The notes: a model not told the origin generated them from the letters alone. A stretch of 60,000 nt of DNA from Botryllus schlosseri (GCA_051294905.1 CM119371.1:7814001-7874000); one strand, 5' to 3'. Positions 40,901-60,000 are shown, counted from the stretch's first letter. Made by a program: numbers and translations.

Positions 40901-41489
40901 GAAACACAATATTTCAAAGCTGGCAGATACGATTCAATCGTGCTTGTGATATTGCAACCATTCAACGTTTCTGTATTATTCACTGAGTGTGCTATTGTTA
41001 CTGCACCCAAGACATTGCAGGATGCCACGCTTTAGGATCCTTTTTGAGCTACCAATAGATATTTGTCATTCACTTGAGTTGTAAATTAGGATTCCTAACT
41101 CATCCAGCAAGCCATGGTAACAGTATCATGCCAATGCCAGTATCACGGCAATGCACAAAGCTATCGAAAGTACCATATGATGAAAACGTCATTTCTCCTG
41201 ATCGAAAGTGAGATATCTTCTCTCTCTTGCCAAATAATCTTTTCTCAATTCGCAAGGATGCTAAAAATTCCGAATATGTCTATGTCCATTCCAAGTCCCG
41301 AAGCCGATGTAAGATCATTTAACTTGTGTTGACTACTCTACGTTCTGAAGCATCTTCGATTTCAAAATCTTCATCATGAGGCCTGCTATCCCTAAGATCT
41401 TCATCTTGATCCAAATTATCGAGATAAAGGGAGTTTCAAGTGACACTGAATGAGCTGAATGGGATATTGGATCTATAGCTGATAGTGTA

Positions 41490-41700
41490 CACTGTAAAAA
41501 ATGAACATGGATATTATCATGGAAATGACATGACTTTCTTTTTCTCATGTTAATTCCATGAAAACACCGACATGGTTTTAAAATCTCATGTTGACATGAT
41601 AAAAACTTCCATGATGGGACATGATAAGGGACCTATGTCTATGCCCAGCAAACACATTACGGCAAGCGGATATCCGTCGGATAACTTGTCATTTGGCCCA
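41490..41700 (+). mobile_element. CACTA/EnSpm-like left terminus (possibly two nested termini)
   Basis: TA followed by CACTGTAAAAAA and about 9 spaced CATG motifs; then CCCAGCAAACAC at 41644. No partner right ends found in the window. Confidence 0.45.
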
Positions 41701-41814
41701 GATTCATCCTAGAGCCATCCGGTTGAACCGAGCGTGTCGACTCCTGGTGTTATCCAATGGGTGACCACTGACCGTCCATCAAGTCAATTCTGAGTCACTT
41801 CCTGGCCACTGTAG

Positions 41815-43013
41815 GGACGAAGTCCGGTTGGGACCGATATCCATAGACTATCCACTAATAAATGGTCAAACCATCAACACGAAGTCCATGCTCACACTAA
41901 AGGGTCACGGATGGCTGGATCATCAGGTTTTAAATGCTGACAGCAAGCTAATTATAGTAGCTGTTGTCATCTGATACTCATTGATATCTTATTTGCACAT
42001 TTCTCACAGATCATGGACTCCACCATGTCGATTTTTACATCCACCCTCGCAAATGTGAGTACAATTATATTATAACTAGCATTTTGAAAACTGCATATGC
42101 GCATTTGTTCCGCAGGGATGCTACCAAACTGTGTCGTGTCAATACGCAACTGAATGGTGGTTCAGAGGCCAATTTCAAGCATGTTATCACAAGTCAATGG
42201 TATGTGGTGATTGGAGTATCACGTATAAAATGCTGTAAATGACATAATGCGGTTCTGTCTGTATGCTGCAGATCGATAGCATGTTGAAACGTCCACGTCC
42301 ATTGATCACGTCACTGCATGTCCATGGAAACCATTGGATATTCTTGGTATGAGCATTGTGCATTGAATTTGTCTTGTGACCTGTATAGTGCAGGCCTACA
42401 TCGAACAATATGTTATTGCATTTAATAGGGAATTGATTTTGATTGCGGTAAAATAACAATTTACGATCCCATGGGCCATGAAGAAACATATGAAGAAAAT
42501 ATTATGAAAAACTGCAGGTTAGATGACGTATTGTACGTATTGACGTATAAAATAAAGATAATCATGAAATATGGTCATTTGGTGTACATTTATTATACAA
42601 TATAAATTTACCATTTAAACTATTTTCGTTTTATCAGGAACTTTTTCAACCTCTACACTGCACATCGCCATTCTTTGCAAAAGAACATTTATCACCACGA
42701 GCAACAACAGGATGGATTCAATTGTGGAGTATTGGTGTTAAAAGTAATCTAATGATATGATGTGTACAACGAAATTAATTTCCTCACTATCTCAATATTA
42801 CACAGTTTGCGGAGCGTCTTTTGAGAGGTCTCCCAATTGACTTCCCCTATGACGAAAAGAGTTGCGACCAATATAGGGAACACTTTGGGAACATAATTCT
42901 GAACTACGAGAGGTAATGTGTAGTCACATGTATTATATTCAATCAAACTGTGGTTCATCTATGTAATTCCATTTAGGCATGAGGAATGTCAAGCACCTGC
43001 TTCCAAGAACTGA
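41815..43013 (+). CDS. Ulp1/SENP-like cysteine protease (peptidase C48, clan CE), spliced; 5' end not defined
   Basis: Eight GT-AG exons join in frame: 41815-41926, 42010-42054, 42116-42199, 42272-42346, 42429-42517, 42638-42743, 42806-42912, 42977-43013. Translation contains TLKGHGWLDHQIMD, HGNHWIFLGIDFDCGKITIYDPMG and QQQDGFNCGVLVLKFAERLLRGLPIDF, i.e. the ordered C48 motifs with His, Asp, Gln and Cys. Confidence 0.85.
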
Positions 43014-43120
43014 TTTGCGTCGGAATCGGTTCTTTACATTTTGTGTTTTCTTTATTAAAACCACTTTGTTTTACTTTGCCTGAATTCTACTGTTTGTATA
43101 TGATCGAAGGATTGTGAATT

Positions 43121-44500
43121 GTCCGGGATGTTGCTTAATGAACTTTGAAAATGGTACATAGGCGCGACTGGTAATCGCAATTTACGCGTATTGATAGGCC
43201 CACTTCAAAGTGATAGTTGGACATCGAGTCGGACCTAGAATTGTTCTAATTTACTTTTATATCAACGTTTATGATCATTGGAGTATATTAAAACCAGATT
43301 GGTACTCGGGAAACTGTCCGGAGTGTTGCTTAATGAACTTTGAAAATGGTACATAGCCGCGGCTGATAATCGCAATTTTCGCGTATTGATAGGCCCACTT
43401 CAAAGTGATAGTTGGACATCGTGTCGGACCTAGAATTGTTCTAATTTACTTTTATATCCACGTTTATGATCATTGGAGTATATTAAAACCAGATTGGTCC
43501 TCGGGAAACTGTCCGGGGTGTTGCTTAATGAACTTTGAAAATGGTACATAGGCGCGGCTGATAATCGCAATTTTCGCGTATTGATAGGCCCACTTCAAAG
43601 TGATAGTTGGACATCGTGTCGGACCTAGAATTGTTCTAATTTACTTTTATATCCACGTTTATGATCATTGGAGTATATTAAAACCAGATTGGTCCTCGGG
43701 AAACTGTCCGGGGTGTTGCTTAATGAACTTTGAAAATGGTACATAGGCGCGGCTGATAATCGCAATTTTCGCGTATTGATAGGCCCACTTCAAAGTGATA
43801 GTTGGACATCGTGTCGGACCTAGAATTGTTCTAATTTACTTTTATATCCACGTTTATGATCATTGGAGTATATTAAAACCAGATTGGTCCTCGGGAAACT
43901 GTCAGGGGTGTTGCTTAATGAACTTTGAAAATGGTACATAGGTGCGGCTGATAATCGCAATTTTCGCGTATTGATAGGCCCACTTTAAAGTGATAGTTGG
44001 ACATCGTGTCGGACCTAGAATTGTTCTAATTTACTTTTATATCCACGTTTATGATCATTGGAGTATATTAAAACCAGATTGGTTCTCGGGAAACTGTCCG
44101 GGGTGTTGCCTAATGAACTTTGAAAATGGTACATAGGCGCGGCTGATAATCGCAATTCACGCGTATTGATAGGCCAAATTCAAAGTGATAGTTGGACATC
44201 GTGTCGGACCTAGAATTGTTCTAATTTACTTTTATATCCACGTTTATGATCATTGGAGTATATTAAAACCAGATTGGTCCTCGGGAAACTGTCAGGGGTG
44301 TTGTTTAATGAACTTTGAAAATGGTACATAGGCGCGGCTGGTAATCGCAATTCACGCGTATTGATAGGCCAAATTCAAAGTGATAGTTGGACATCGTGTC
44401 GGACCTAGAATTGTTCTAATTTACTTTTATATCCATGTTAATGATCATTGGAGTATATTAAAACCAGATTGGTCCTCGGGAAACTGTCCGGGGTATTGCT
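43121..44500. repeat. Tandem array, 7 near-identical copies of a 195-bp unit
   Basis: Unit start GTC(C/A)GG at 43121, 43316, 43511, 43706, 43901, 44096, 44291 and a partial at 44486; only scattered substitutions, no indels. Confidence 0.97.
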
Positions 44501-45034
44501 AAATATGTTGACGCGCTACTCATCAGCGCAATTCATACATGACTTTTTTTATCGCTGTGGATGTGATTTCTGTTGACTTAAAACGACAGTGCTAGTATAT
44601 TCAGCTATATCTTAGTCGAGAAACTACTTATAATAGTCCTACTATTCTAGATTTATCACATTTTGTATTTCATGTTCATGGTGACTCATTTTTTATTTCC
44701 GTTGATATGACAATCGTGCTACGATGATAGCAGTATTTCATAGGTTGTCTTTGTCAAAGTTGCAAAGTATATGGCTTGTTGCTGTATTAAGCCGTGGATT
44801 GGATGGTAAGTATTGATGTATTTATTGTTCCTGTCTTCGTTGTAATATATCCGCCGAATCTGCAATGCGTCACTGGGTATAGTCGAACCTGAAGCAACTT
44901 AGTCGTATTCAGTCGGATACCGGTATATAGCGGGAACTGCCAAACGGCTGCAAATAGTGATCAAAGTTTACTGCGTATCCATTTGTATGTAGTTGTAGAT
45001 CATGTTGAAGTTGGTAATGCGTTAGTAGTCCTAG

Positions 45035-45591
45035 CAGGGTTGTAACCAAGTCACAAGGCTCCGAGTCACAAGTCAATCTCACTCTTATATTTCGACTCGA
45101 GTCAAGTCGAGTCATTTTCAATTCCCACCGAGTCAAGTCCGAGTCCAAGTCAGCGAACAGAGGATCGAGTCCGAGTCCAAGTCATTGTGTTGACTGCTCA
45201 GTTTCCATTTAAAGTCTTCCTAAACCCACTTTTTTAACTCTGTTTGGTGATATTGAATGGTTCGCATTTATAATATATCAATTTGCCTCACTTTTAGCAG
45301 TTTCTGGTCGCATTTTCAAGCACCAGTACCAACAAACGAAATCCCAATAGTGTGTTGGCTTCGAAATTACAATGAAATGTCGGTCTTCGCCGTCTGAATC
45401 TCGAGTCAATGACTTGCTTCGAGTCCTGCACAATGACTCGAGTCCAAGTCGAGTCAATTCACAGATTGACTCGAGTCTAGTCGAGTCATTTCCGTATTTT
45501 GAGAAAATGACTCGAGTCGAGTCGAGTCATCCAAAAATCGTGACTCGAGTCTGACTCGAGTCGAGTCATTACTCGAGTCATTACAACCCTG
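45035..45591. mobile_element. GACTC-rich hAT-type MITE inserted in the cassette
   Basis: TIRs CAGGGTTGTAA / TTACAACCCTG, TSD AGTCCTAG/AGTTCTAG. Confidence 0.85.
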
Positions 45592-45989
45592 AGTTCTAGA
45601 CGTTTCACAAGCTTCCTTGTTTTTATTTTGTACCGTACTGGGCAATGTTAAAGTGAAGTATTTATCCAACTGGAGGAATATTCATCCTGAGGTGATTGAA
45701 GAAACTTCAGCTTTAAAAAATATGGGATATCATGCTATACTCGAGTCTTTGATTCAAGATTTGAAAACCCTAGAAACATAAGGAACTGATGTAAATTTGT
45801 ATTTTACAGATATATATACTCAAGTTGTGGTACTTGTGAAATAAGTGCCCGGAGGTCTAGGCGGCAATAGTTGTTGCATCATAAAATGGGAGTGTTGTAG
45901 GATAGTAAGTGTTTTACATGTACATTGAAATGAGGGTGAAAAAATCACCAGGTCTGGTAAGGAACAAGTGAAAAAAATGACCCTGCCAT

Positions 45990-47078
45990 ATGAATAACAC
46001 GGGTTTAAAATATGAGAGAATCAGTAAATATGAGGTATCAAGAAAAAGAAGGTTTGACCCGCAAAGGACGGTAGAGAGTGGATGGACGCCACATACTGTC
46101 TTGTTTACTTGCGCAGATACGTGGGGAGGAACCTACAATGTGTTGAGTTTGATCGAATCGGGTGCGCTTCTCAACACACAAGACTGTGTGCTATTTCTGA
46201 GAAATCACGGGTTGTTGGTGCGAAGGATGAAATGCAAGCGATGTAGAAATATAATGAAAGAGGAAAATACTTCGACAGGCTACGATGGGTTTAGGTGGCG
46301 ATGCAACCCCTGTGATACTACGGCGACTATACGGAAACACTCGATATTCGCGGGAAGCAAGGTAGAACTTCCCAAATTATTAATATTGTTCTACTTTTGG
46401 GCCCATGACGCGTTGCAAACTCAAATTGCGCATGAAGCAGAGATTAGCCAGCGTTCAACGGTCACTTGGTGTGGCCGTTTGCGAAAGCTTTGTTCGGCCG
46501 AATTTCACAGGAAGAAACGACGTTTAGGAAGTGAAAAAGGCTGTGTGATCATTGATGAAACGCATTTAGCTAAGCGCCGGGCTGCCTCGGGTAAAGGACC
46601 AGCTGTTAAAGCCATTTGGGGGTTCGGAGGCATAGATAAAGCTACCGGAAAAATGTTCATAGAAATAACTTCCGACAGGACTGCTGAAGTATTCCGAAAA
46701 CTCATAGTAGAAAATGTGGCAGAAGGGTCCACAATTCTAACCGATGCCTACCCTTCCTACAGGGGCATAGAGAGCTGGGGGAAGGGTTATACACACGGTG
46801 TAGTGGACCACTCCCGTTGGTTTAAGGACCCTCGGACAGCTTTTTGTACTAATGAAATCGAAGGGGCCTGGGGACAGCTCAAATATCATTTACATAGGTC
46901 TCGTGGTTTAGCACGTCATCTTTTGGCCGATTACGTAGGGGAGTTTTTGTGGAAACGTCAACATCAAAAGACTGACCGATTCTTGGCACTCCTGCGTACC
47001 ATACACAATGACCCACAGTATAATTTTGATAAATTTGATGGGTCTCCTGTATTACCACCATTGGAAACCCCGCTATAG
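45990..47078 (+). CDS. Merlin / IS1595(IS1016)-family DDE transposase
   Basis: 362-aa open frame with Zn ribbon CKRC..WRCNPC, IRKHSIFAGSK, catalytic VIIDET, WGFGGIDK, ILTDAYPSY, HGVVDHS, TNEIEGAWGQLK and YVGEFLWK. The true start is uncertain (possible splice acceptor at 46116). Confidence 0.93.
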   Translation: MNNTGLKYERISKYEVSRKRRFDPQRTVESGWTPHTVLFTCADTWGGTYNVLSLIESGALLNTQDCVLFLRNHGLLVRRMKCKRCRNIMKEENTSTGYDGFRWRCNPCDTTATIRKHSIFAGSKVELPKLLILFYFWAHDALQTQIAHEAEISQRSTVTWCGRLRKLCSAEFHRKKRRLGSEKGCVIIDETHLAKRRAASGKGPAVKAIWGFGGIDKATGKMFIEITSDRTAEVFRKLIVENVAEGSTILTDAYPSYRGIESWGKGYTHGVVDHSRWFKDPRTAFCTNEIEGAWGQLKYHLHRSRGLARHLLADYVGEFLWKRQHQKTDRFLALLRTIHNDPQYNFDKFDGSPVLPPLETPL

Positions 47079-47163
47079 GGTTCTAGGACGGAAATGACGC
47101 TATCTGTTATTTTGTGTTTTTACAGACGTTAGTCTAGGGCTAGTGCGCGATTACATTTAATTT

Positions 47164-47307
47164 ATGACGTGGAAAGAATCACCACCACTATCCGTACCAT
47201 GGACCTCCTTCCTCATTCTCTGTCTATCCTTGTTGGTATCATTTGTACATCTGATTTGTTGCTGCATACGGCGGCGCAAGGCATGCGCGGACTCGCAGAT
47301 CCTGTAA
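47164..47307 (+). CDS. 47-aa single-TM micro-protein overlapping the glycoprotein start
   Basis: First ATG after the acceptor at 47125: MTWKESPPLSVPWTSFLILCLSLLVSFVHLICCCIRRRKACADSQIL*; hydrophobic helix, then CCC, then RRRK. Confidence 0.55.
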   Translation: MTWKESPPLSVPWTSFLILCLSLLVSFVHLICCCIRRRKACADSQIL

Positions 47308-49715
47308 CAAGTAGAGCACGATCTTTCACTCAGGGGACACTAGGTGAACTACGGGGACCCCTGCCTGATGAATGGGTCACTTTAAATGATACACAATGGG
47401 AGGACTATCACTTGATGAGCATATTCAATAAAACTGCGGAGCGACATGTATATAGACGGCCTGAGTTGTTTTACAGTAAGTCATTTGGTTACGTAGTGGC
47501 TGAGCGACTTTCGTTACAACAAATGGCGTTTCCACATGGAAGATATTGGTCAAGCGTACAAGAATTTGAACGCACTTGTCTATGTCAGCGGCGCCTGGGT
47601 CAAATCACGCCCAATATTTCCTATGATGTTCTTAAACAAACGAACATGTTCATACGTCCAATAGGATTTTATAGGATTCAGTGGTTCTGGAATGGGGACC
47701 AATACTTGTTTCATGACCTTGGCAGGAATTACTCCATGTTTGCTCTTACCAAATTTAAATTGATTATGATCCGACTATTCGAAAGTTACTCAGCTGTTGA
47801 AGCTTCATGCCGTCAAGAGCAAATGGGAGATCAGGACAAAGAAAAAATGAGTGAATTGAATAAGTATAATGCCAGTAGCAATAGTTTTACACAATGCTGG
47901 CATCTAGTACATAAAAACTACGCCTCCCACAGCACCTTTTGGCAAAAATTTCACTCCTGGAGGGAAGAAGGGATCATAATAGGAATCTGTACAAGGTGTA
48001 ATTTTAGAGGAGTGATTTCTGCCCTGGAACCAAATAAGGCAGATATAATCATCCAAGAAATAGTAATGACTACAGTAAGTGACTGGCAGTATGTGCGCAA
48101 TAAGTTGATACCATGCCGGGCCCAGGGGGGATGGATTAATCAGGACTGGTTTGCGCACTTATGGCCCAAGAATGCTGTAATAGCCCATTCGTGCAACTTC
48201 TGGCCAGGAATGAATACCACTCTATGGGGTGATCTACCAACGACAAATTTCCCTCCGAGAGTAAAATGGATACAACCGTCTTTTCCAAATGTGGATCATA
48301 GTGTGTATGCTAATCGTGGCAATCAGGGCATGAAGTGGAATAATCTTTTTGATGGTGAGCCGACTAGGTTTAAGGCATCTACATCAACATGGGTACCTTT
48401 TCCCAGGCCAATGTGGAAATTCTTCCCCTCTCTTACTGCGTCGGACATAGCATGTAAAAATAGAATATCACGTAACCAGGATTTGTGTCGCGACCCTGTG
48501 GGCGGACCCATTTTGAAGGCAGCATTTTGGGACCATGTTCATTTTGATCCGGAGCTAAACCGACCACGTTTCCCAGGAGGCCCAATAGAAATTAAGGGAG
48601 AGATAGTATCGAGTGAGAGTATCAAACGGGGTACGCGTGGAAGACGTAAAAGGTTTCTGTCCGGATTATTATGTCTAATATTCGGCCTGGTGTCAGCAGT
48701 AGCCGTCGTGGCGTCAGTTTCATCCCAATTGCATGAAGAAACGGTAGATCTGACCAGACAAATCAATGATAGAATGACGCAAGCTACGCAGAGGTCCACT
48801 GCACTAGGAAGGAAGATTAACGAGCTCTCTCGGCTCCAGATAGCTCAACAACAAAAATTGGACCAAACAGTGGCCACTATGGAAGTTAGGTCATCACTAG
48901 TAAATAAACGCCTAGTATTATTGGAAAAATACATAGAGAGGAATCGACAGATGATAGTAACACAAGCAACAGCCTCTTTGACCTCTTTTCAAAACTATAA
49001 AGAAATGAGTGATGCCGAACTAGCCATCGATCGATTGGTTTTAAATGAATTGGCTAATTTAACTGGCAAGTTAATATTTGACTCCAGCAAGGTATATCTC
49101 ACGAAAATCCGACAAGGAACGTTACGTATAAAAGAACATGCTCAACAATTCACAGCCTATAGAGACGCTTACATCAATGAGACGAATGACATCGGAGTGG
49201 AACTACGTGCTAATCGTATAGGTCTAGATCAAGCCCAACAAAATGTAGATTTCGGGTTGCAAGTTTGGAGAGAAGATCTGAATAAGAGTGTGTACATGAA
49301 CATTTCTGATTGGCGATATGAGAATATTACAGTGAAGCCTTTCGAATTTGTGGGAGGAAAAGAATTTATGAAGAACTTTGGCCAAACGATAGAAGAGATG
49401 GCACATGCTTCCGGAAGCTTGATAAAATCAGTTGGAGATAGTGCAGGAGATCTACTACAAGACGGATTAGGTGCGGTCGGAGGAATATTCAGTAAGGGAA
49501 TGAGCGGAATTTTTTCCGGCCTGGGGTCTGTTTTAATTCCAGTAATTTTGATATTGGGGGCTGGGATCATCTTGTTTTGTTGCTGTCGTTATAGCAGTCT
49601 TTGCTGTCCTAAGTTAAAACCTAAAGTACAAAGGCGAAACGCGAACACTCAGTTGACAATGTACATATCGTCGGTGCCTACCTACCCGAAAACAGCCAAA
49701 TCAACAAGGATGTAG
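47199..49715 (+). CDS. Viral-type class I fusion glycoprotein-like protein (838 aa from the ATG)
   Basis: ACCATGG start, signal-like N-terminus, many NxS/T sequons, multibasic RGRRKR then hydrophobic FLSGLLCLIFGLVSAVAVVASVS, long heptad region, Gly-rich amphipathic membrane-proximal segment, TM VLIPVILILGAGIILF, tail CCCRYSSLCCPK. Intronless. Confidence 0.8.
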   Translation: MDLLPHSLSILVGIICTSDLLLHTAAQGMRGLADPVTSRARSFTQGTLGELRGPLPDEWVTLNDTQWEDYHLMSIFNKTAERHVYRRPELFYSKSFGYVVAERLSLQQMAFPHGRYWSSVQEFERTCLCQRRLGQITPNISYDVLKQTNMFIRPIGFYRIQWFWNGDQYLFHDLGRNYSMFALTKFKLIMIRLFESYSAVEASCRQEQMGDQDKEKMSELNKYNASSNSFTQCWHLVHKNYASHSTFWQKFHSWREEGIIIGICTRCNFRGVISALEPNKADIIIQEIVMTTVSDWQYVRNKLIPCRAQGGWINQDWFAHLWPKNAVIAHSCNFWPGMNTTLWGDLPTTNFPPRVKWIQPSFPNVDHSVYANRGNQGMKWNNLFDGEPTRFKASTSTWVPFPRPMWKFFPSLTASDIACKNRISRNQDLCRDPVGGPILKAAFWDHVHFDPELNRPRFPGGPIEIKGEIVSSESIKRGTRGRRKRFLSGLLCLIFGLVSAVAVVASVSSQLHEETVDLTRQINDRMTQATQRSTALGRKINELSRLQIAQQQKLDQTVATMEVRSSLVNKRLVLLEKYIERNRQMIVTQATASLTSFQNYKEMSDAELAIDRLVLNELANLTGKLIFDSSKVYLTKIRQGTLRIKEHAQQFTAYRDAYINETNDIGVELRANRIGLDQAQQNVDFGLQVWREDLNKSVYMNISDWRYENITVKPFEFVGGKEFMKNFGQTIEEMAHASGSLIKSVGDSAGDLLQDGLGAVGGIFSKGMSGIFSGLGSVLIPVILILGAGIILFCCCRYSSLCCPKLKPKVQRRNANTQLTMYISSVPTYPKTAKSTRM

Positions 49716-49801
49716 TACATACATATGTACTAAAAGGGTTTTGCTTTTATAAAATTTAACTTTTCATAAGTTCACAGATATACTAACTAATTTATAATGA
49801 T

Positions 49802-52800
49802 ATGAACTGTTACCAGAAAATATGGATTGTGCTGACAGTATCTTTAATACTGCACCGAGGATATCTGCAAACTCATGGCGAATTATTGCCCCTATCTGCT
49901 ATGAGTGTAGTGCCCAGAATCACATTTAATCTTACAGGATGGACAACGTTCCGGTATCAAGGTCTCAGATACCTCCGCCTTAATCGGCTATTCAAATTAA
50001 ATGAGAGTTGGCCAATAGGTGAAACGGAAAATAATTTTCCAATACACGAAGAAACACCCGAATTTGGTCCAACACGAGCTGGCAAAGATCAATTGTATAA
50101 GTTATTTGCACCCTCAAGGACTGAGAGGCGGTATTGGAACAATGTAAGGCAATACGAAAGAGAATGCGGATGCAATCGAAAACTATCACGAGTATCTCCC
50201 GATATTATGTTATCGGCCTTGACCAGAACCATAACGTATCGACGGAAAAATAATTTCGGATTAATACATACATGGAAATATGTTGTAGGGCGGGAATCAA
50301 GTTTTCCAATAGTCGTTCCTAGAAATCTCCGTCGAGTAATCTCTCCAAATACAACCCCAGAAGTTACTATACACCAGCTGTTGACCGTTTACAAGTTATC
50401 AGTGATGAACCACTTGGCACAATATGCAACAGTAACAGCAAGGTGTCGACAACATTCGGAAGGAATCGAGGGGTGGAAGGTCAACAAAGGCGAATTTAGT
50501 GTATGTATATTCGAAAATACTAGCGGAATGCAATGTATAGGATGTGCATTTTATACAGACAATCGGGCAGTAAATACACTGTCCAGGGAATTTGTGTTCA
50601 TGGAAATAGATAACAGCATTAGAGGACTAGGAACAAGAATGCAAGAAACCTATTCCTACAGTCAATGGCCAGCAGGAGTCAAACTACCCAGATTACATCA
50701 CGACATCGTGTGGTTAAAGGCTCGAAATGAAACCGGGCCCAGAGAGAGGCCAGCAAACTTTGATGGTCATACTTGGTTTAGATTGAGGATTTACGCCCTT
50801 CGCGAACATCTAAATAATGAAACTCAACGGATAATGGGAAGGAAAAATTTTCCGACTATGTTGCTAGGCAGCATAGAATGTGAACGCAAGAAAAATAGGA
50901 AAGTTTGCCGTAATGCAATAGGAAGTTTGAAGACGGCTTTGGCCTTTAAGGAAGTGTTATATGACCCATACACAAACCAATCCGTGTATGCAGATCATAG
51001 CAATGGTCGATTAAAAATTGCATCTCCAAGACCTACAGGTCAGGAACCTCCACTCGAGGCATGGCCCAATAATCTATCGTATTGTAAACAACCCGGGAGA
51101 TTAGGCAATTTTGTTCTGACTGCATCACTTCAAAACAATGGACAAAACACAAAAAATATGGATTACTATCTAGCCCGCCTAGGAATGTTTTATGTAGAAA
51201 TAACGAAAAGACGTTTACGCCAGTTGTCGCTTCCCATATACAAAAAGCGAAAAAATCTAGAGAGGCTGGAAAGACCAATAACAATAGCTGACATGGCTTC
51301 TTTAAGTCAGGAACTAGGATCAATATTGACGCAACGGAAACTGAGTAGGGTAAACGAGGGGCTATTAAGCTACATGTCGACGAAAAAATTGAGAGAGGCG
51401 CCACTTCAAGACGATATGCGGCTATTTCGACCTAGCGTTGCCTACAAAGCTATAATATGTGCGGGTATATTGGTATATACACCTTATGCCTATAAGGAGA
51501 ATATCAAAATGAATACGAACTCCGCACGGCCATCAAGTTTTGCAAAAGTAATAACATCAAGGCCTATCAATCATGAAGATACCACTCGAATGGCGGTCCC
51601 CAATAGCGAGTCTAGCACAGTGTATAATTTCACTCCTATTAATATAAGTCAACAACCAACTATGAGAACGGGGGAAACCATCACAAACACTGAGGGGAGT
51701 GTAAGAATGACGAATCAATACGATACTAACCGCTATAACTACGATTATATAGAAGATTATGACGAAGGATTTAGCTATGACGGATATGACAATAATACTA
51801 GTTTTCAAGACTCTGGAAATTACTACTATGACTACTATGACGAAGACGGAGAATATGAGGGTTCACTTAAACGTAGGCCCCTACCCGTAGCTGATACTAC
51901 GGATTCCACAAATATTATTGAAACTACAATGGTGTTACCGATGATTGAAGCTCCAACATCGACTAAAAATACTCAATATGCAATCAAGTTAACAACGGAT
52001 ACAACAATTCCAACGCCAGGAACGTCTGCATATACGTCAGGTAGTATTACGTCCCCACGAACAACTACTGCGATCACACCATATACCAGAGGGTTGGCAT
52101 CGGCCATTATCAATTCCGGAACGACTTCATCGACACCGCTTCCAGCCATATTAACAACTGTGCATTCCTCGCGAGAAGATAACACCAGCCCAAGATCAAC
52201 TGCATCTATTTCTACATTCTTAGCTACAGTGAAAACTATGAGTGAACAAGAAAGACGTGGGACGAGCCCCACAACTATATTCACAACTTTGAAACTGTCT
52301 ACATCTATATCAACAGAGATGGACGTTCAGAAAAACATTGGTATTGCTACGACAGGACTCACCTTTTCCAAAAGTAAGTTAACAACGCTTACAACAATGG
52401 AGAGAACGGCAAACGCACAGTTACAATGGAATACCATGGCTTATCAAGGATCCACAAAAAACGGTGAAATGTTAGGCTCCATACCCGTGCCAATAAAGAA
52501 AACACCCCAGATTACGCAAATACCTGAGTCTTATATACAATTAAGTCATCACACAAGTCAACTCATGGACACAACATCGCCTATAGCGCATTTCAAAATG
52601 TTGCTGGATACAACACCAGTAGCAACGACGGTTGAAACGCACCAATATTTCGTCACCAGCAAGTCCCGCTCTAATACAGAACCAGATAATTCAAGCAGAG
52701 AGCAAGATATACAGGTAAGAACTAAATCAACATCAATGCTTTCATCAGGGGATTATCAGAGCGAACCCACATCAGTAAGTAAAAATGATGTGATCAGAAG

Positions 52801-53209
52801 TTGGAAGAGTACTTCCAATAGTGCACTTTCTTCAATTACGCCCGCTGTCAAAGAAGAAGGAAAAACTACACTCAGTATACCGCATACCTTACCTACGGCC
52901 AAATATGACAGACTGGACCGAATTACATTTGACTTCTATGGACAATTGCACAAACTACAAAAAATGGAACAAGGATATGCAGAAGGTAGAATTATTGTTG
53001 ATATTAACAATAGAAAGGATTTAGAAGAATCACTTAACAATCATGCCCTGATTTTTGCGGTTAGCGTCACAGCAATGTTAGGATGCATGTATTTATGTTA
53101 TGCGAAATGTGGGAGAGTCGCTTCAAAAAATTATCTTAGGGAGGTTATTCGACGGAATAACCGAAAAACGTATATTACAGCAGTAACGTTGCACGAAAAA
53201 CAGAGATAG
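49802..53209 (+). CDS. Type I membrane glycoprotein with paralogous head domain and mucin-like stalk (1135 aa)
   Basis: Signal peptide, Cys-containing N-terminal domain alignable by eye to the upstream glycoprotein, Tyr/Asp-rich segment, long Thr/Ser-rich region, TM LIFAVSVTAMLGCMYLCYA, basic tail. Intronless. Confidence 0.8.
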   Translation: MNCYQKIWIVLTVSLILHRGYLQTHGELLPLSAMSVVPRITFNLTGWTTFRYQGLRYLRLNRLFKLNESWPIGETENNFPIHEETPEFGPTRAGKDQLYKLFAPSRTERRYWNNVRQYERECGCNRKLSRVSPDIMLSALTRTITYRRKNNFGLIHTWKYVVGRESSFPIVVPRNLRRVISPNTTPEVTIHQLLTVYKLSVMNHLAQYATVTARCRQHSEGIEGWKVNKGEFSVCIFENTSGMQCIGCAFYTDNRAVNTLSREFVFMEIDNSIRGLGTRMQETYSYSQWPAGVKLPRLHHDIVWLKARNETGPRERPANFDGHTWFRLRIYALREHLNNETQRIMGRKNFPTMLLGSIECERKKNRKVCRNAIGSLKTALAFKEVLYDPYTNQSVYADHSNGRLKIASPRPTGQEPPLEAWPNNLSYCKQPGRLGNFVLTASLQNNGQNTKNMDYYLARLGMFYVEITKRRLRQLSLPIYKKRKNLERLERPITIADMASLSQELGSILTQRKLSRVNEGLLSYMSTKKLREAPLQDDMRLFRPSVAYKAIICAGILVYTPYAYKENIKMNTNSARPSSFAKVITSRPINHEDTTRMAVPNSESSTVYNFTPINISQQPTMRTGETITNTEGSVRMTNQYDTNRYNYDYIEDYDEGFSYDGYDNNTSFQDSGNYYYDYYDEDGEYEGSLKRRPLPVADTTDSTNIIETTMVLPMIEAPTSTKNTQYAIKLTTDTTIPTPGTSAYTSGSITSPRTTTAITPYTRGLASAIINSGTTSSTPLPAILTTVHSSREDNTSPRSTASISTFLATVKTMSEQERRGTSPTTIFTTLKLSTSISTEMDVQKNIGIATTGLTFSKSKLTTLTTMERTANAQLQWNTMAYQGSTKNGEMLGSIPVPIKKTPQITQIPESYIQLSHHTSQLMDTTSPIAHFKMLLDTTPVATTVETHQYFVTSKSRSNTEPDNSSREQDIQVRTKSTSMLSSGDYQSEPTSVSKNDVIRSWKSTSNSALSSITPAVKEEGKTTLSIPHTLPTAKYDRLDRITFDFYGQLHKLQKMEQGYAEGRIIVDINNRKDLEESLNNHALIFAVSVTAMLGCMYLCYAKCGRVASKNYLREVIRRNNRKTYITAVTLHEKQR

Positions 53210-56200
53210 GTATTGCAAAATAATTACTGAATTATTGTAATAATAGAAGTGAGTGTTGTTACGTGTTGTGTTCGGTCCGTTTGCGCGGTTTAGAGTCCAT
53301 GTGAAATTTACCAAAACCTAAATTTAATTTTATTGAGATAACAATGTGTAAAATTTATGCTGTGTTTGCCTATGGAGGCCTAAAAGTGTGTGGGGTTTGA
53401 GAATGTACGAGGCAAATTCGCAGTATTAACGATGCTTATGCAACGAATATCATTGCGAAATACATAATTGCGAAATTTTTGGATGGTATTGCTAAGCCAA
53501 CTCAGGACTGAGTAATACCTCAGTTTGTAAAACATGGAAGCGGATGGCGTTATTTTTGTAAAATATAGCCATAAATGATGGTGGGAAAGGAAACGTTGCA
53601 GTGGTAAATTGACTCATAGGAAATAATTGACTACAGCAAAATGGCGAAATTTGACTGCTATTGGGGGTTTAATCACGCTGTAGTACGAATGGTAGCGACA
53701 AAAATTTGCTAGATGAATGTTCGGATGTGCGTCAGTCCCTACTTTATGGAGATAGGGAATTGCTCCTGGTGAGGGGGGCGGATGTATGTGTGTCAACGAC
53801 CTTCCGCTCAAAACTGGATATAACTCGGGGCGCAGGATCAAAAAATTCAGTTCACTCTACACAGAGCTGAACGGGCATGAAGAATCTAGAAAGTTAACAG
53901 AGTTGACTAAGATTATGACAAGTTAGTCAGATCTTATAGACAATGACTGTTGTACTTGATAGATAATAATTAGTTTATGCCATGCGGATGGATAAATGCA
54001 AGATGTCATCTTAAGGGCTGTCGCGTTATAATTTTGTTAAATTTAACAGATTGATGTTGGATATTGATCTGATATAGCCACAGCATTTGGGGTCGAGCAG
54101 TGTGGCTAATCCAGGATTGGGGTACACTGCCGATAACTGGGCTATTAATCTCTTGATTGTTTTCGGTCAAATACCATGGAATGGTGGGGCATATAAGCAA
54201 CAATATAAAAATATTATTAAAGGCGTCATAGTAATATAAATGTCTGAACGGCTGACATCATCACATCGTTGGAGCGTACCACTGCGGTATTCAGTAGCCA
54301 GTACCTTTAAGTGGCCTTAATAACAGGGATATAAGGACCCACGATGTAACTAAAAATGGCCAATTGTTGACATAAAGACTTGCTTAGATAGCGGAGTACC
54401 AAGCTACTACCATCTGATCTAATACTATTCCCTATGAGACGTGAACAGTTAGTTGTCCCTATATTTATGACCAAGTTACGGCGTTCCAAGTCAACTTGAG
54501 TCATTCTCATTTTGTCATCGAGTCTGCCTGAATCCGAGTAATTCTACGCGGGTTCGCGTCCAAATCACAATAGACTTACAAATTTCAGTCATGAATCATC
54601 TAAGGATCCGGATTTATCTTCATAAAATAGAATTGTGGCAAAATATTGAATCTTTACCGCATGGTAGTGTTTGCAATTGATGTGATAGTTAATTTTGATA
54701 AATAATCTCAGACTCTCGGAGCAATTTGAGAAGGAATTTTAACTTCTTAACATAAAAAGATATATGTCTGTCACTTACAAATTGTCAAATACTTGAAATT
54801 CTAAAATGTCTTCGCGGGCCGCACAGAATAATCTGGCGGGCCGCGTGTTTGAGATCTCTGAGTAAACCAAAACACTTGCAGCGACATAAATGGACGCTCG
54901 TAACCGCAAGTACTATAGACCGCAAATCGTAATTTTGCACGACCATATGTGATGTCACAATAAATCAGTGTACGTACATGGTACCTTTAGATTACTAGTA
55001 GGCATATACAATACACACCCAACGGGCACGATAACGCACTTCAAATCAATGCATGCGCTCAATGTAGGCCTACCGCGTCAAAATACTGATGTGCCGTCTT
55101 CCGCAATGCACTCATTACTACCAAGATAAATAGTAATTTATAATGATACATATATTCAAGTCTGACTGAAGCAAGAACAATAACATTGTGGGACGTTATC
55201 GACTTGACATTCTAGTTTAAACAAATCGAATAAAATCAAAATTGATGCTGCTGTGAACCTGATTTAACGTTGCGCAGTTGAAGCATATTTCGATCAACGT
55301 TTTCAACAATATTGGTGTTTGTAATTAAATCGGCGCCTGGTAAAATTTCGATAGTACAAAAAAGAACTGATGCTCACTTTTCTATAAAGGGGAGAGAGAA
55401 AATTAACGGGACATTCATAACTATGATTATATTCACTCGCTGCGCGGATATCTCTACTATACAAAATAAATTCTAAACACTCGATCACTCATAATGTCGC
55501 CTGTGTCTAAAAAAAAAAAGTATGGCTGATTCCTGCTAAAGACGTTTGCAAATACAATCATTTGCGGCAAATAAGGACGGTAGATTTGGAATTTTAAAGT
55601 TTATAGAATCAGCCTGCGGTCGACGCGTCTTGCTACCGTAGCTGTTCCTCACATACACTAAATATAACAATATTGGTTAGCATAAGTAACTACTGTAAAA
55701 GTGGTAATTTCAAGCGGCAGTGGCACAATCACCAACCTATTGAGTATCGAAGCTGCCTCTCATTGTATACCGCGCACTGCACAAGGTTGACAATAACATT
55801 AAGACTACAAGAAAATGCCAATAATTTTATAGTGTGTGCTAATGTACATAATTCCATGGTCTCTCGAGTCACTGGCCTCAAGCGATTTGGGTTGGCCTGA
55901 TTTGACCAATCATTCAATGACAATGCGCTTTGTTGGGCATATATTTGACATAGCGTCACGAATATATGGATCGCGGGCTAAGGGAAAAAAATTACGGACA
56001 ATGCTAGCGTAAACTATAGCGTTCTATTAAATCCTTTATTTCGGTTTGATAAAACAAACTAAGAACGGTGCGTTTACTAAAATGGATTATTAATTTACTT
56101 ATATGTGAACCATACACCGCATTATCTGTGTACCTATTTAACGATGTATATTCATGGGTCAGATGCCAGCGACCACTCGATCTGTATTGCAAAAACCTGA

Positions 56201-56699
56201 TAGAGTACAATGATGTAATTACGTCTTATGCCTGGTAAAGGCAATTCGATTTGAATCTTGGTTTGACTCGAGTCGCCGTCAGTAATTAGTTGCCTTGACT
56301 GGACTCGATCAAAAGAGGCAGTGATTCGAAATGACTCATGACTCGAATGTTATGCCTAGTTTCATCATTTGCAATTTAATATTAATGATTTAAAGTACAG
56401 TATTAGGATTGAGACACAACCAATAAGAATCTTAAATCAAAATGGTTTTTTGATATGGAATGTGTTTTGACCCTGACTGGCTACGCTACTTCAATTACTG
56501 CATTCGATACATTATGGTAGTTATTTACGTCAGGTAAGGAATTCTGCTTCAGGAAATCTGAGCTATCACATGAATAACTAGCTTAAAACAAGCCTTATAA
56601 CTATATGTACCTTATAACATCTAACTAGACCATTGGGTTAGGCTGACGACTAAAATGAATTGTGACATCGCAACTAAGTGGAATACAATATTACATTTG

Positions 56700-59270
56700 A
56701 GACAATACGGTATATATACCTACCTTGGTGATAACTGGCTTTTGGCTCAGGGTAATCCGGGGTTGGTACATCCTATATATTCCGTTGGAAAGGTATACCC
56801 TTTGCAAATTCTGGTATCTCCCAAAAATTAAGGTTATCCCGGTTGAGAAACACTTGCTTCTAGGTTCAAAATTAACTAAGCTTATAAATACAACTAGCCT
56901 AGTCTGACCAAACTTAAACATTGCGCTCTAAGTAATTCAATAACACGCGGTTGCCACAAACGAAGACGAGTCGCATAAATAGCTTCATGTACTGTCAAAC
57001 TCATATTACGCTACGAGCCGGATAATAGTTGAATAATAACAATTCTGCTCAAGACGCAAAGTGATTAATCCACTTCAATGTTTTAAGCCACTAGTACTAT
57101 AATATTGGAACCGTTCTCGAAGCTCCCTTAGGTGAAGATTGCTAATATGGACCTGGTATCTAAATCTGTGTGACAGGAGCCATCCCAATTACTTGGTCCT
57201 TGTAGAATGTCTTAAATGATGGAACAATACTTGGGGTGAGTCTAGTTATGCGCATTCGTATATATAAATATGACAAGATCAAGTATATTTCAGGTCAAAG
57301 TGCGTTCCCATTAACACAATAATGATCTATATACTGGACATTGCTTTGTTGTTTTTTTAGTAACTAGGGCTCGCGCAAACGCTGGTTATGTGCGCTCGGT
57401 GACTTGATACGAGAATTTAAAAGATCGCAACGAAATGATGACATTGATTTGGATTTAATATTAGTGTTTCTATTTTCACAATAATCTATCCGCACATGCT
57501 CAATAATACTATTCAGTACTACCAGAGGTGATTACGACGCTGCAATGATCCAGCTACAGAGGCGAAAGGGATGTTCCTATAATCTGTCTGCGAAAGGCCG
57601 CGTACAACGAATTAATTTTGTAAAAATAATAAATTGTATCAGAATTAGACACTTGCGTTTCGCTCTAGTTTAGTGGAATTGGACGACTTGACAATTCCGA
57701 CATCAGATTTGCACTGCACCACGCGCAGGTTCATCTTGGCATGTAAGCGGTAAGGAGTATCAAGAACCTCATACCGTAGGCCGCTGTGCATATTCTATTG
57801 TCGTTAATTTACCTAACTCATGACGGAGAATCAATTGCAAACGCATGGGCTATACTGGATTAATAAATGGATAGTCTAAACGAAACAGATATCAATTTCG
57901 ACATGAAAGTTATTTTAATACTGGCTGACTGCGTCACTTTATTTACTAGAATTACCGAATTGCGTTTTATTAATTTAGGGTAAGAAGCAGTGTGGAGATG
58001 ACTCGAGTCACTTGGGAAAAATATATTGACTCGTGTCTCGAAGCAAAATTTACGATTCAATATCAAGTCATAAAATAAACGGGTGTCGAATAAATCACTG
58101 TAGCGTGCGTATACTTGAATGGCTGTGTCAGATCATAAATAAATTGACCGTAAATGAAACAATCACGGCTGACGCTGTCGTGGTAGTTATCGTTTTGTTT
58201 CATTAGAAGGCTCAATGCTTACGTTGTGCAGTGCGTATCCGTCTATATTTTGGTCAATAATGACTGGCTGTAGCATTTAGCTTTACAATCGCTCACGTAT
58301 TTTACTTGCGCGTGACTGATACAACATCTTTTTGCATGTATAGTTAACTACATATTGGTTATTCAATTCAATGTGGATACCGAAATATTAATTTGACTTG
58401 AATTGTGATTTGACTTGTAACTTGACTTGGCTTGATCCTATTAAGGGTCTGCCATGACTCGGGATGACTCGGGACTCAAAGGGAATCGATCTCAACACTG
58501 GTTTATCGCCGACTAGTAAATGATTAGGATACATATCACAATCAAAGGGTATACATTGTCACACTAAAATAATATTCTACCAAGTTGCTAGCTCGTCTGT
58601 GTGTTAATCTATACTGAACCATAAACCTATCTTTACAATAACTGGTCTTCGGCTCATTGTATTACGGAACTGGTACATCCCTGTAAATCCTATTCGAAGG
58701 TTACACCATGTTGCCAGTTCTGGTACATCCCATAGTACGTGGTAAAACGAGCTCTTGTCCATAATTCTAAAACTAAAATTGCTTTGTCTTAGCTAAACCC
58801 TGAAGCCATAATGCGACGCCAAGCATATACGACAGCAGGGACGAGTCGCATAAATGACTTCCTTAATTGACAAACTCGTACTGCATTGCGAGGCGAATGT
58901 TATTGATTACTGACAATTGTGTACGTTACAAACTATAAGAGCTATGAAATTGTAAACCTACTGTAAGTCATGACAAACCTCGGCTTTGACAAATCGTACC
59001 GTTTTCAAACCTTTCTCGCGTACTGAAATACTGTTCAGAAATAAGTGTGCTTGCTGGTGCCATATTAGGAATGTTCATTTTAAAGTTAGTGCGTCGGTAA
59101 CCTCTGCAATATTAACTCAAATATATTCTGATTGTCAGGACATGATTATAATTCACCAGAAATTGTTGTGCGGGTATGGAGATTTGTATGACGGGAGCTG
59201 CCTCCGTCAGTTGGTCCATCCAAAATAGTTGAAATAATGGAAAAATTGCTTGAGGCAGTTCTAATTATAC
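56700..59270 (-). repeat. Diverged direct duplication (about 1.9-2 kb spacing) with exon-like blocks
   Basis: 56725-56830 resembles 58635-58740, 56965-57030 resembles 58840-58910, 57150-57240 resembles 59170-59260. Confidence 0.55.
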
Positions 59271-60000
59271 GTGTTCATTGATAAGAATAACAATAAACGA
59301 CATGATTTTTTACGCTAGGCATTTTTGATTAAATTAATATAGGGGCAATAAGCAGAAATAAGACGTGAAAGGTATTTTCCCATATCACGTTTTAACTATA
59401 GTATATTTGCTTATATATAAGTACGATTGAGAGCAAAAGGCAAAGTGTGTGTCCGTAATGGAAGGGATCAAATTGGACAAATATTTTTAAAATAGAAGGA
59501 AAATTGGCCAGATTCAAATCTTCTCAATTAAATAAATAGATTACAAAATATTACTTAGCAAGCTTGGACAAGGGTGGATGTGCTTGCCGCAGTGTCCATT
59601 AGTAAGTATGCAGAGCAGGTTTTTTTTGAGCTATGATTGCATGTCTACATCTACAAAAGAGAGTTTTAAGTATTGTTGAAGACGGCGTAGGAGTTAGACA
59701 GATACTTCGACAGACTAAACGCTGGCCCGCTAATATTAGACAATTGTGAGAAATTTTTATTATCAGAGATAAAGGACAGGATACTCTTATAATGGTTTTT
59801 TGGCTTCTGCGGGTAGTAAAAACTACATTTTTGAGTTGGATTTTGCAGGGGTAGTTACTCGAAACAGATTGGTTTTGTGGAAAAGATGAATAGTTCATTG
59901 ATAGAGTATTAGTATTGGTGACACAGACTATTTAAAAACATAAAAATGAGTGTCGTTCTATATCAGTACAAAATAATGTACTAAGTAGCAGTGCGCGTCG

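Follow-up and report, generated by a model that had tools for sequence, protein, structure and literature searches.

The DNA analysed here (the window) is a 60-kb stretch of the Botryllus schlosseri genome (G000:C1:7814001-7874000; GCA_051294905.1 CM119371.1); the host genome comprises 495.5 Mb in 219 contigs. The window holds the first 14.2 kb of a mobile element of 34,068 bp. We read this element as retrovirus-like, with a probability of about 0.6: gag, reverse transcriptase (RT) and env genes are joined to Merlin transposases and to ends made of terminal inverted repeats (TIRs), in a unit that is 34 kb long at this locus, usually reaches 37-41 kb, and exists in dozens of copies and several subfamilies. 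Its anatomy, its ends, its 8-bp target site duplications (TSDs), the linkage of its genes across subfamilies and selection on all tested genes are direct observations. The features of the element that fall in the window are listed below, with positions counted from the first base of the window.

45829..60000, + strand: element, first 14.2 kb of 34,068 bp, from blastn against the C10 and C14 copies; the rest is C1:7874001-7893896 (L021, L022)
45821..45828, no strand: left TSD, 8 bp, CAAGTTGT; the identical 8 bp stand directly after the 3' end at C1:7893897
45829..45851, + strand: 5' TIR, GGTACTTGTGAAATAAGTGCCCG; homology to the C10 and C14 copies starts here
45990..47078, + strand: Tnp1, Merlin/IS1595 DDE transposase, 362 amino acids (aa); Pfam DDE_Tnp_IS1595 (PF12762)
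47199..49715, + strand: GP1, predicted envelope-type glycoprotein with class-I-fusogen layout, 838 aa; sequence features and trimer model
49802..53209, + strand: GP2, predicted mucin-like type I membrane glycoprotein, 1135 aa; sequence features
53210..60000 (to ~63.3 kb if window numbering is continued), + strand: variable internal region without recognisable genes; copies are 68-91% identical or unalignable

The window contains only 13 frames of at least 120 aa, and the three longest are Tnp1, GP1 and GP2. All three are on the + strand. The original prediction, made from the sequence alone, described an intact Merlin/IS1595 transposase followed by two large co-oriented glycoprotein open reading frames (ORFs); this arrangement is real, with gaps of 120 bp (Tnp1-GP1) and 86 bp (GP1-GP2). 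Tnp1 matches DDE_Tnp_IS1595 at E 5.8e-11 and 43.1 bits (cut-off 27). Tnp2, a second transposase on the + strand beyond the window, matches the same family above the gathering score (E 1.6e-17). About 25 copies have, 17-36 kb downstream of Tnp1 and on the same strand, a second Merlin-like transposase with 40% identity to Tnp1; the unit must therefore be much larger than the 13-kb cassette first proposed. The borders given for that cassette, 41490..54490, do not stand. The true 5' end is at 45829, position 54490 is arbitrary, and the unit continues to C1:7893896.

These borders come from blastn. The C1 (window), C10 and C14 copies are alignable from 45829 to C1:7893896, a point 19,896 bases beyond the end of the window, and diverge abruptly outside. 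The element begins 5'-GGTACTTGTGAAATAAGTGCCCG... and ends ...CGGGCATATACTGCACTAGTTCC-3', giving GG...CC ends. Compared as GGTACTTGTG... and ...CACTAGTTCC, the end sequences form an imperfect TIR of ~23 bp with 17 of 23 positions inverted-complementary (counted by eye). Genome matches to the first 160 bp of the element all start at query base 1 (40/40), and none of 20 5' ends or 15 3' ends departs from the GG...CC termini. A search with a degenerate TIR pattern gives 97 genome matches (49 forward, 48 reverse) versus none for a reversed-pattern control. When TIRs are paired by hand, ~18 copies measure 37-41 kb; the others are deletion derivatives of 4.7-23 kb or extend up to 56 kb. A perfect 8-bp TSD is present in 14 of the 15 copies with both flanks examined, and matching TSDs bracket the entire unit of 34-51 kb. 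In the available text of a survey of Merlin elements, terminal 5'-GG, short TIRs and a TSD of 8-9 bp are given as hallmarks of the group (PMC8101967). The mobile unit that had been predicted is thus supported, with Merlin-type TIRs and TSDs bounding the unit as a whole, and there is a strong case that a Merlin transposase inserted all of it.

The copy without a matching TSD is G000:C11:19498082-19538372, with CAATACTA on one side and CTATCATT on the other; it may be a recombinant of two insertions. Slightly different TIRs are found on elements of 12-14 kb that have no listed Tnp1 or GP1 match (C1:19042164-19054584, C2:15288067-15301718, C3:3986215-3998339, C4:19306003-19318450 and C13:15715340-15727488). 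These may be non-autonomous relatives or another subfamily. An oppositely oriented element of a 72%-identity subfamily is bracketed by one such TIR pair at C5:18373634/18412484; it may be a nested insertion.

The genome contains 113 matches to Tnp1, 56 to GP2 and 54 scored matches to GP1. Of the GP1 matches, 27 are full length at 79-100% identity, and 25 of these are free of stop codons. Of 20 copies, 17 keep the Tnp1 frame open over at least 323 codons, and 18 keep that of GP1 open over at least 830. Dozens of unrelated loci, spread over at least 14 contigs and over subfamilies of about 90, 80, 67, 60 and 35-39% identity, repeat the order and spacing of Tnp1-GP1-GP2, which bears out the predicted linkage of transposase and glycoproteins in one mobile unit. 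This repetition speaks against a chance neighbourhood, in which a small Merlin would stand beside unrelated glycoprotein genes or independent elements and host genes would be nested in one another. The separateness of the ORFs is all that favours such an arrangement. It is refuted by the ends: neither Tnp1 nor Tnp2 has tight TIRs of its own (the original prediction had named such TIRs around the Merlin ORF as a contrary sign), and the TSDs flank the whole 34-51 kb unit. We regard it as scarcely credible. Tnp2 was also considered as a nested independent Merlin and rejected, as two copies share no inverted repeats flanking it.

The original prediction reported no capsid, polymerase or RT and suggested, as one option, a fragment of an endogenous DNA virus lacking a polymerase. 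The absence was an effect of the window edge, and the option is not supported: the unit is 34-47 kb long, carries gag and RT, and is retrovirus-like. Gag, with a CCHC knuckle (zf-CCHC), and a 1160-aa pol encoding protease (PR), RT and RNase H lie beyond the window on the + strand. Pol matches the Pfam families RVT_1 (E 1.4e-17) and RT_RNaseH_2 (E 2.2e-19) and, at its C-terminus, PTS_2-RNA (E 2e-9). The protease motif LADTGS is at aa 87 and the RT motif YIDD at aa 677. A 67-nt overlap joins gag to pol, which is in the -1 frame, and this overlap holds the slippery heptamer A_AAA_AAC in the gag frame. In most other copies Gag has 950-965 aa. It has no sequence match in PDB; its Atlas neighbours are Retrotrans_gag and Ty3_capsid clusters at 0.88-0.90, which we treat as a lead only. 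The best PDB sequence matches of Pol are a chain titled 'Enzymatic polyprotein' (E 5e-18), which we take to be a caulimovirus protein, foamy-virus Pol and Ty3 RT. Among 5.8 billion proteins, the nearest Pols are of Ty3/Gypsy type and only 22-26% identical; rve, the integrase domain, is present in nine of the 11.

Scans of 27 frames of the element (the three window ORFs and 24 + strand frames with lengths from ~100 aa) gave no match to rve (PF00665), and neither did scans of 100 variable-region frames of 55 aa or longer. The usual place of integrase, the C-terminus of Pol, is occupied by a Tpt1/KptA-like RNA 2'-phosphotransferase domain (C1:7892990-7893623 = L022:8990-9623; L037:7899-8519). This domain is supported by Pfam (E 2e-9 to 2e-10) and by the PDB entry 7kw8 (E 2.5e-6). 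The alignment retains GH[ST] and R..[VI]HLS; the Arg that precedes GHS in solved enzymes aligns to Ala. A word search returned no long proteins with a similar Tpt1-like domain.

GP1 and GP2 would form the envelope module, GP1 as a furin-primed class-I-like fusogen and GP2 as a mucin-like glycoprotein of attachment type. GP1 has a signal peptide, 11 sequons, 17 Cys and a transmembrane segment (TM) at 767-803. Its single furin-type site, RGRRKR/F at aa 480-485, stands directly before a hydrophobic stretch (484-512). The R-x-K/R-R site and the hydrophobic residues are kept in 23 of the 25 aligned homologues that cover the site (counted by hand), down to 20-30% identity. AF2 places helices at 508-600 and 646-694 in a model built with alignment A1 (pLDDT 58); a single-sequence model has a pLDDT of 36 and is unusable. 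When three copies of aa 486-800 are modelled, the trimer scores 0.68 versus 0.00 for the best control, the partner pLDDT is at least 63, and runs share at least 63% of contacts. The contacts are in register with heptad spacing over 486-622, and an outer helix packs at 626-679. In a calibration of this score on eukaryotic proteins, the mark was reached by 17 of 29 proteins with structures solved as pairs of one chain and by none of 30 with structures solved as single chains; this calibration was made on two copies, not three, and coiled coils pass easily. GP1 is therefore predicted to have a class-I-like, furin-primed fusogen layout, as it combines the elements of class I fusion architecture: signal peptide, furin cleavage before a hydrophobic peptide, heptad helix, C-terminal TM and modelled trimer. 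The claim of a fusogen gains support to this extent.

The membership of GP1 in any named envelope or fusogen family could not be shown from the models and searches. Neither GP1 nor GP2 has a Pfam family or a sequence match in PDB, and Foldseek returned no match for the GP1 fold in PDB or BFVD at E <=1e-3. The top match in the VIA search is HIV-1 gp41 (Z 10.7, rmsd 13.5), which is within helical-bundle noise. Atlas features place GP1 near spike, F and HA clusters at 0.89-0.91, again only a lead. An exhaustive HMMER search of 1.84 billion representative proteins found 38 relatives of GP1, all of them unnamed predicted proteins, and none of the 15 that were scanned contains a Pfam family; a word-index search found one match. 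GP2 has 14 sequons, 31-40% Ser+Thr in aa 700-1000 and a TM at 1081-1101, and is without a furin site. The N-terminal domains of GP1 and GP2 are paralogous (BLASTP E 2e-9 over aa 96-210).

All long frames of the element are on the + strand. Beyond the window the order is ORF169, ORF290, ORF211, a leucine-rich-repeat (LRR) protein, ORF140, Tnp2, E2, three small ORFs, gag and pol. The LRR protein matches LRR_8 (E 2e-42) and the E2 enzyme matches UQ_con (E 5e-47). The fuller copies C14 and C10 contain a further 4.4 kb, placed between Tnp2 and E2, with an inhibitor-of-apoptosis gene (IAP) and four small ORFs; this IAP has three BIR domains (E 3e-59) and a RING domain. The segment missing from the window copy comprises ORF239, IAP and three small ORFs. 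The IAP, E2 and LRR proteins may serve to manipulate the host. In the variable region, none of 100 frames of at least 55 aa from two copies matches Pfam at E <=0.001. E2 genes are also found elsewhere in the genome. A tandem UQ_con cluster at C1:34121100-34492667, together with contig C148, is 53-80% identical to the E2 of the element, and every gene of it aligns in a single unbroken piece. The closest of these non-element genes (77-80%, C1:34.12-34.49 Mb) match as single uninterrupted stretches, and the intron test of gene capture is uninformative. Dispersed E2 copies that are nearly identical among themselves form two further sets (56% and 58% identity) and resemble cargo carried by other mobile elements.

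A sister subfamily has pol, Tnp1 and GP1 at 78%, 61% and 60% identity and, at six loci, the order gag-pol-Tnp1-GP1 without gaps. At the junction, pol ends in ...LCEGPIPSECILMENMA; a single stop codon follows, beyond which this frame continues into the conserved N-terminal stretch of Tnp1. The frame after the stop is open in four of six sister copies, and in C1 and C3, the two copies read far enough, the conserved Tnp1 stretch has no Met before it. In the window family, 15 of 20 copies have ~45 open codons in the Tnp1 frame ahead of its first Met (window 46084-46215; L002-L020), and these codons are homologous to the stretch after the pol stop in the sister subfamily. Their pooled pN/pS is 0.40 versus 0.10 downstream. 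Homologues of ORF140/171 and Tnp2 stand upstream of gag in the sister subfamily. The gene order of the sister subfamily is the canonical retroviral one, with Tnp1 in the integrase position.

The sister trailer and 3' TIR (first 12 bases as in the window family) come after GP2. The sister 3' TIR has 74 genome matches versus one in the control, and in 6/6 copies it lies ~3.7 kb beyond GP1. A 56-nt block of the sister 3' trailer is 94.6% identical to the trailer of the window family. The block [Tnp1-GP1-GP2] is thus at the 3' side in the sister subfamily and at the 5' side in the window family, relative to fixed ends. The 5' end of the sister subfamily was not found; the TSD and TIR-start pattern has no match nearby. 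The window-family trailer also contains a near-perfect 25-nt palindrome (24/25; AAAAAATGCTGAGTCAGCATTTTTT) at L022:9727-9751 (C1:7893727-7893751), which lies partly within the 56-nt block. At C13:16459582-16469378, a Tnp (60% identity), GP1 (67%) and gag (66%) lie inside 10 kb, in what is apparently a compact subfamily. Possibly this is a minimal form that has no accessory genes.

Purifying selection acts on every gene tested, with dN/dS of 0.10-0.42. Median pairwise values among copies are 0.11 for Tnp1 and 0.20 for GP1. Values per gene, from the C1 copy compared with the C14 copy at dS 0.17-0.44, are as follows.

E2: dN/dS 0.11
ORF140: dN/dS 0.11
Tnp2: dN/dS 0.14
pol: dN/dS 0.15
ORF157: dN/dS 0.17
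gag: dN/dS 0.18
LRR protein: dN/dS 0.25
GP2: dN/dS 0.32
ORF290: dN/dS 0.38
ORF169: dN/dS 0.40
ORF211: dN/dS 0.42

The source lineages therefore needed all of these genes, the retroviral ones included. We lean towards RNA-mediated copying of the element. An intact and selected gag-PR-RT-RNase H set with a canonical frameshift site argues for such copying and for the transposase as its integrase, as do the specific loss of integrase, the location of Tnp1 in the pol frame of one subfamily and the shared orientation of the genes. A full-length RNA would be reverse-transcribed in Gag particles to give new copies, and the DNA product would be integrated by the Merlin transposase acting as an integrase. 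Env may let the element spread between cells or individuals. We hold these three steps with moderate confidence.

The chief alternative is a giant Merlin DNA transposon restricted to cut-and-paste movement, carrying gag-pol-env as captured cargo with an RT that does not copy the element. The cargo would at most build particles or fuse cells, as in a transposon-virus fusion of the Teratorn type. We consider this unlikely. It accounts well for the Merlin TIRs, GG termini and 8-bp TSDs, and for two apparently intact transposases, but cargo without a role in propagation would be expected to decay, and across lineages at dS 0.3-0.4 purifying selection has conserved gag, protease-RT-RNase H and the frameshift signal. 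The specific absence of integrase, with Tnp1 occupying its place in the pol frame, and the one shared orientation, as in a single transcription unit, are likewise unexpected under it.

Several observations nevertheless weigh against a retrovirus-like element copied through RNA, and some of them favour the DNA-only rival. There is no long terminal repeat (LTR): between the 5' 1.2 kb and the 3' 1 kb no match exceeds 13 nt. Two copies contain no internal copy of the termini and thus no DIRS-like complementary region. Many internally deleted copies (4.7-23 kb) retain both TIRs, a pattern typical of cut-and-paste transposons. The element is silent in three raw RNA-seq runs of the same species label (6-13% of each run, mapped to window 41001-60000): depth is <=0.43 in every bin over 46073-60000, and a flanking spliced gene is covered in the same runs. 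This silence has no bearing on germline or induced expression. The remaining points concern the retroviral machinery itself. Compared with shuffled sequences, the stem-loop downstream of the slippery site shows no advantage (z -1.5 and -1.8). The pol stop codon of the sister subfamily is not followed by a structure (z +1.8), and further stops come after it in two of six sister copies. Rfam and ARAGORN found no RNA family and no tRNA gene in the element; a primer-binding site was not searched for. The window copy is defective, with gag split by an in-frame stop and about 4.1-4.4 kb missing compared with the C10 and C14 copies. No means by which a cDNA would regain complete ends is visible. Conceivably they are regenerated on a circular or head-to-tail template, as is suggested by the permuted gene order between subfamilies.

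The permutation can also be taken as a sign of infection. The copies could be germline endogenisations of an exogenous reverse-transcribing virus with a pararetrovirus-like circular or concatemeric DNA stage and a Merlin transposase as its integration enzyme. Copy number would then come from repeated infection more than from transposition within the genome. This is compatible with our preferred explanation and, as an account of its own, rather improbable. The subfamilies differ by a circular permutation of their gene order in which the 3' trailer and TIR keep their terminal place; the env genes are under selection; and genes such as IAP, E2 and LRR are typically carried by viruses that manage host cells. 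The best PDB match of Pol, titled 'Enzymatic polyprotein' (E 5e-18), fits as well. The C1 copy is a mosaic when compared with C10:1089683-1136735: GP1 is 98% identical, GP2 85%, gag 99% and pol 95%, with individual DNA blocks at 78-99%. Such a pattern points to recombination between lineages and also suits an exogenous virus. However, no relatives were found in IMG/VR or JGI metagenome contigs, the relatives of GP1 are only the 38 unnamed predicted proteins, no episomal or circular form was observed, and the 5' end of the permuted subfamily was not found.

The retrovirus-like element may represent an unrecognised order of reverse-transcribing elements or viruses; we regard the odds of this as even. 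Its members would have a divergent Ty3/Gypsy-like gag-pol in which integrase and LTRs were replaced by a Merlin DDE transposase and TIRs, with their own class-I-like fusogen, an attachment glycoprotein, anti-apoptosis and ubiquitin genes, and a circular or concatemeric stage. Such a stage would account for the different placing of [Tnp1-GP1-GP2], which stands on the 3' side in one subfamily but on the 5' side in another.

Among known systems, the Ty3/Gypsy elements (Metaviridae) and their env-bearing members share with this element a CCHC gag, a -1 frameshift, the protease DTG motif, YIDD and an RNase H of RT_RNaseH_2 type. Env lies downstream of pol in one subfamily here, as it does in those elements. 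They differ in having LTRs and an rve integrase in place of TIR ends, and the nearest database Pols are only 22-26% identical to the Pol of this element. LTR elements also typically differ in TSD length from the 8 bp found here. DIRS-like retroelements have gag, RT and RNase H with a tyrosine recombinase in place of integrase, and are without ordinary LTRs. DIRS elements make no TSD, whereas the element described here makes one of 8 bp and is without an internal complementary region; Pfam scans of the element frames found no tyrosine recombinase. They are nonetheless a precedent for a swapped integration enzyme (cf. VIPER/TATE, in the available part of PMC6681497).

With Merlin elements the likeness is in the DDE_Tnp_IS1595 transposase, the terminal 5'-GG, the short imperfect TIRs and the 8-bp TSD. 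Described Merlins are small and have a single gene, whereas this element is 34-51 kb long with at least 15 genes, two transposases, gag, RT and env. Neither 'reverse transcriptase' nor 'envelope' occurs in the available text of the Merlin survey (PMC8101967). Burro (GYPSM1), a giant Gypsy element of planarians, has a comparable giant size, a BIR motif and domains related to ubiquitination and apoptosis, which recall the IAP and E2 found here. Burro is, according to the available text, an LTR retrotransposon with a PR-RT-RH-IN pol that includes integrase, whereas TIRs and Merlin transposases are found here; the same portion of this 2019 review of giant transposons does not mention Merlin (PMC6431247). 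Teratorn of medaka is similar in principle, as a virus-like genome that integrates through a cut-and-paste DDE transposase. It joins piggyBac to a 180-kb double-stranded DNA herpesvirus (PMC10175614, available text); here Merlin is joined to a reverse-transcribing module of about 40 kb. An element combining a Merlin/IS1595 transposase with RT, gag or env was not found in full-text literature outside subscription journals, Repbase and supplements.

Retroelement classes are defined by their mode of integration: retroviral-type integrase, tyrosine recombinase or endonuclease. If the reading of a retrovirus-like element is correct, gag-RT-env with a Merlin transposase and TIR/TSD ends adds a new solution. 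The integration module of a retrovirus-like element would be exchangeable for that of a class II transposon, and the border between classes of transposable elements would have been crossed in a lineage under selection. The element also provides an unannotated family of predicted class-I-like fusogens (the 38 relatives among 1.84 billion representative proteins), a Pol fused to a Tpt1-like domain, and a natural vehicle of about 40 kb with host-type IAP, E2 and LRR genes. Annotation pipelines would break such elements into 'Merlin', 'Gypsy' and orphan genes.

Two features upstream of the element had been assigned to the cassette.

43120..44504, no strand: 195-bp tandem array (TRF: 7.1 copies, 97% matches), outside the element
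42269..43100, + strand: spliced, weakly expressed flanking gene, from RNA reads, outside the element

Both are flanking DNA, because copies are unrelated outside 45829 and C1:7893896. The array exists as described; its membership of the cassette does not hold, since homology to other copies begins sharply at 45829. The upstream gene, which had been called a spliced C48 protease gene, is indeed spliced. RNA reads skip three GT..AG introns (42514/42635, 42743/42806 and 42910/42975). Its identity as C48 is not upheld: none of the six exon pieces matches C48, the motif was recognised by eye only, and a single match at chance level (E 0.058) is to an unrelated family. Nor does the gene belong to the element. 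Between this gene and the element, RNA reads match window 44805-45600 in part, and 97% of the placed reads continue into unlike sequence; this stretch consists of dispersed repeats that are transcribed elsewhere.

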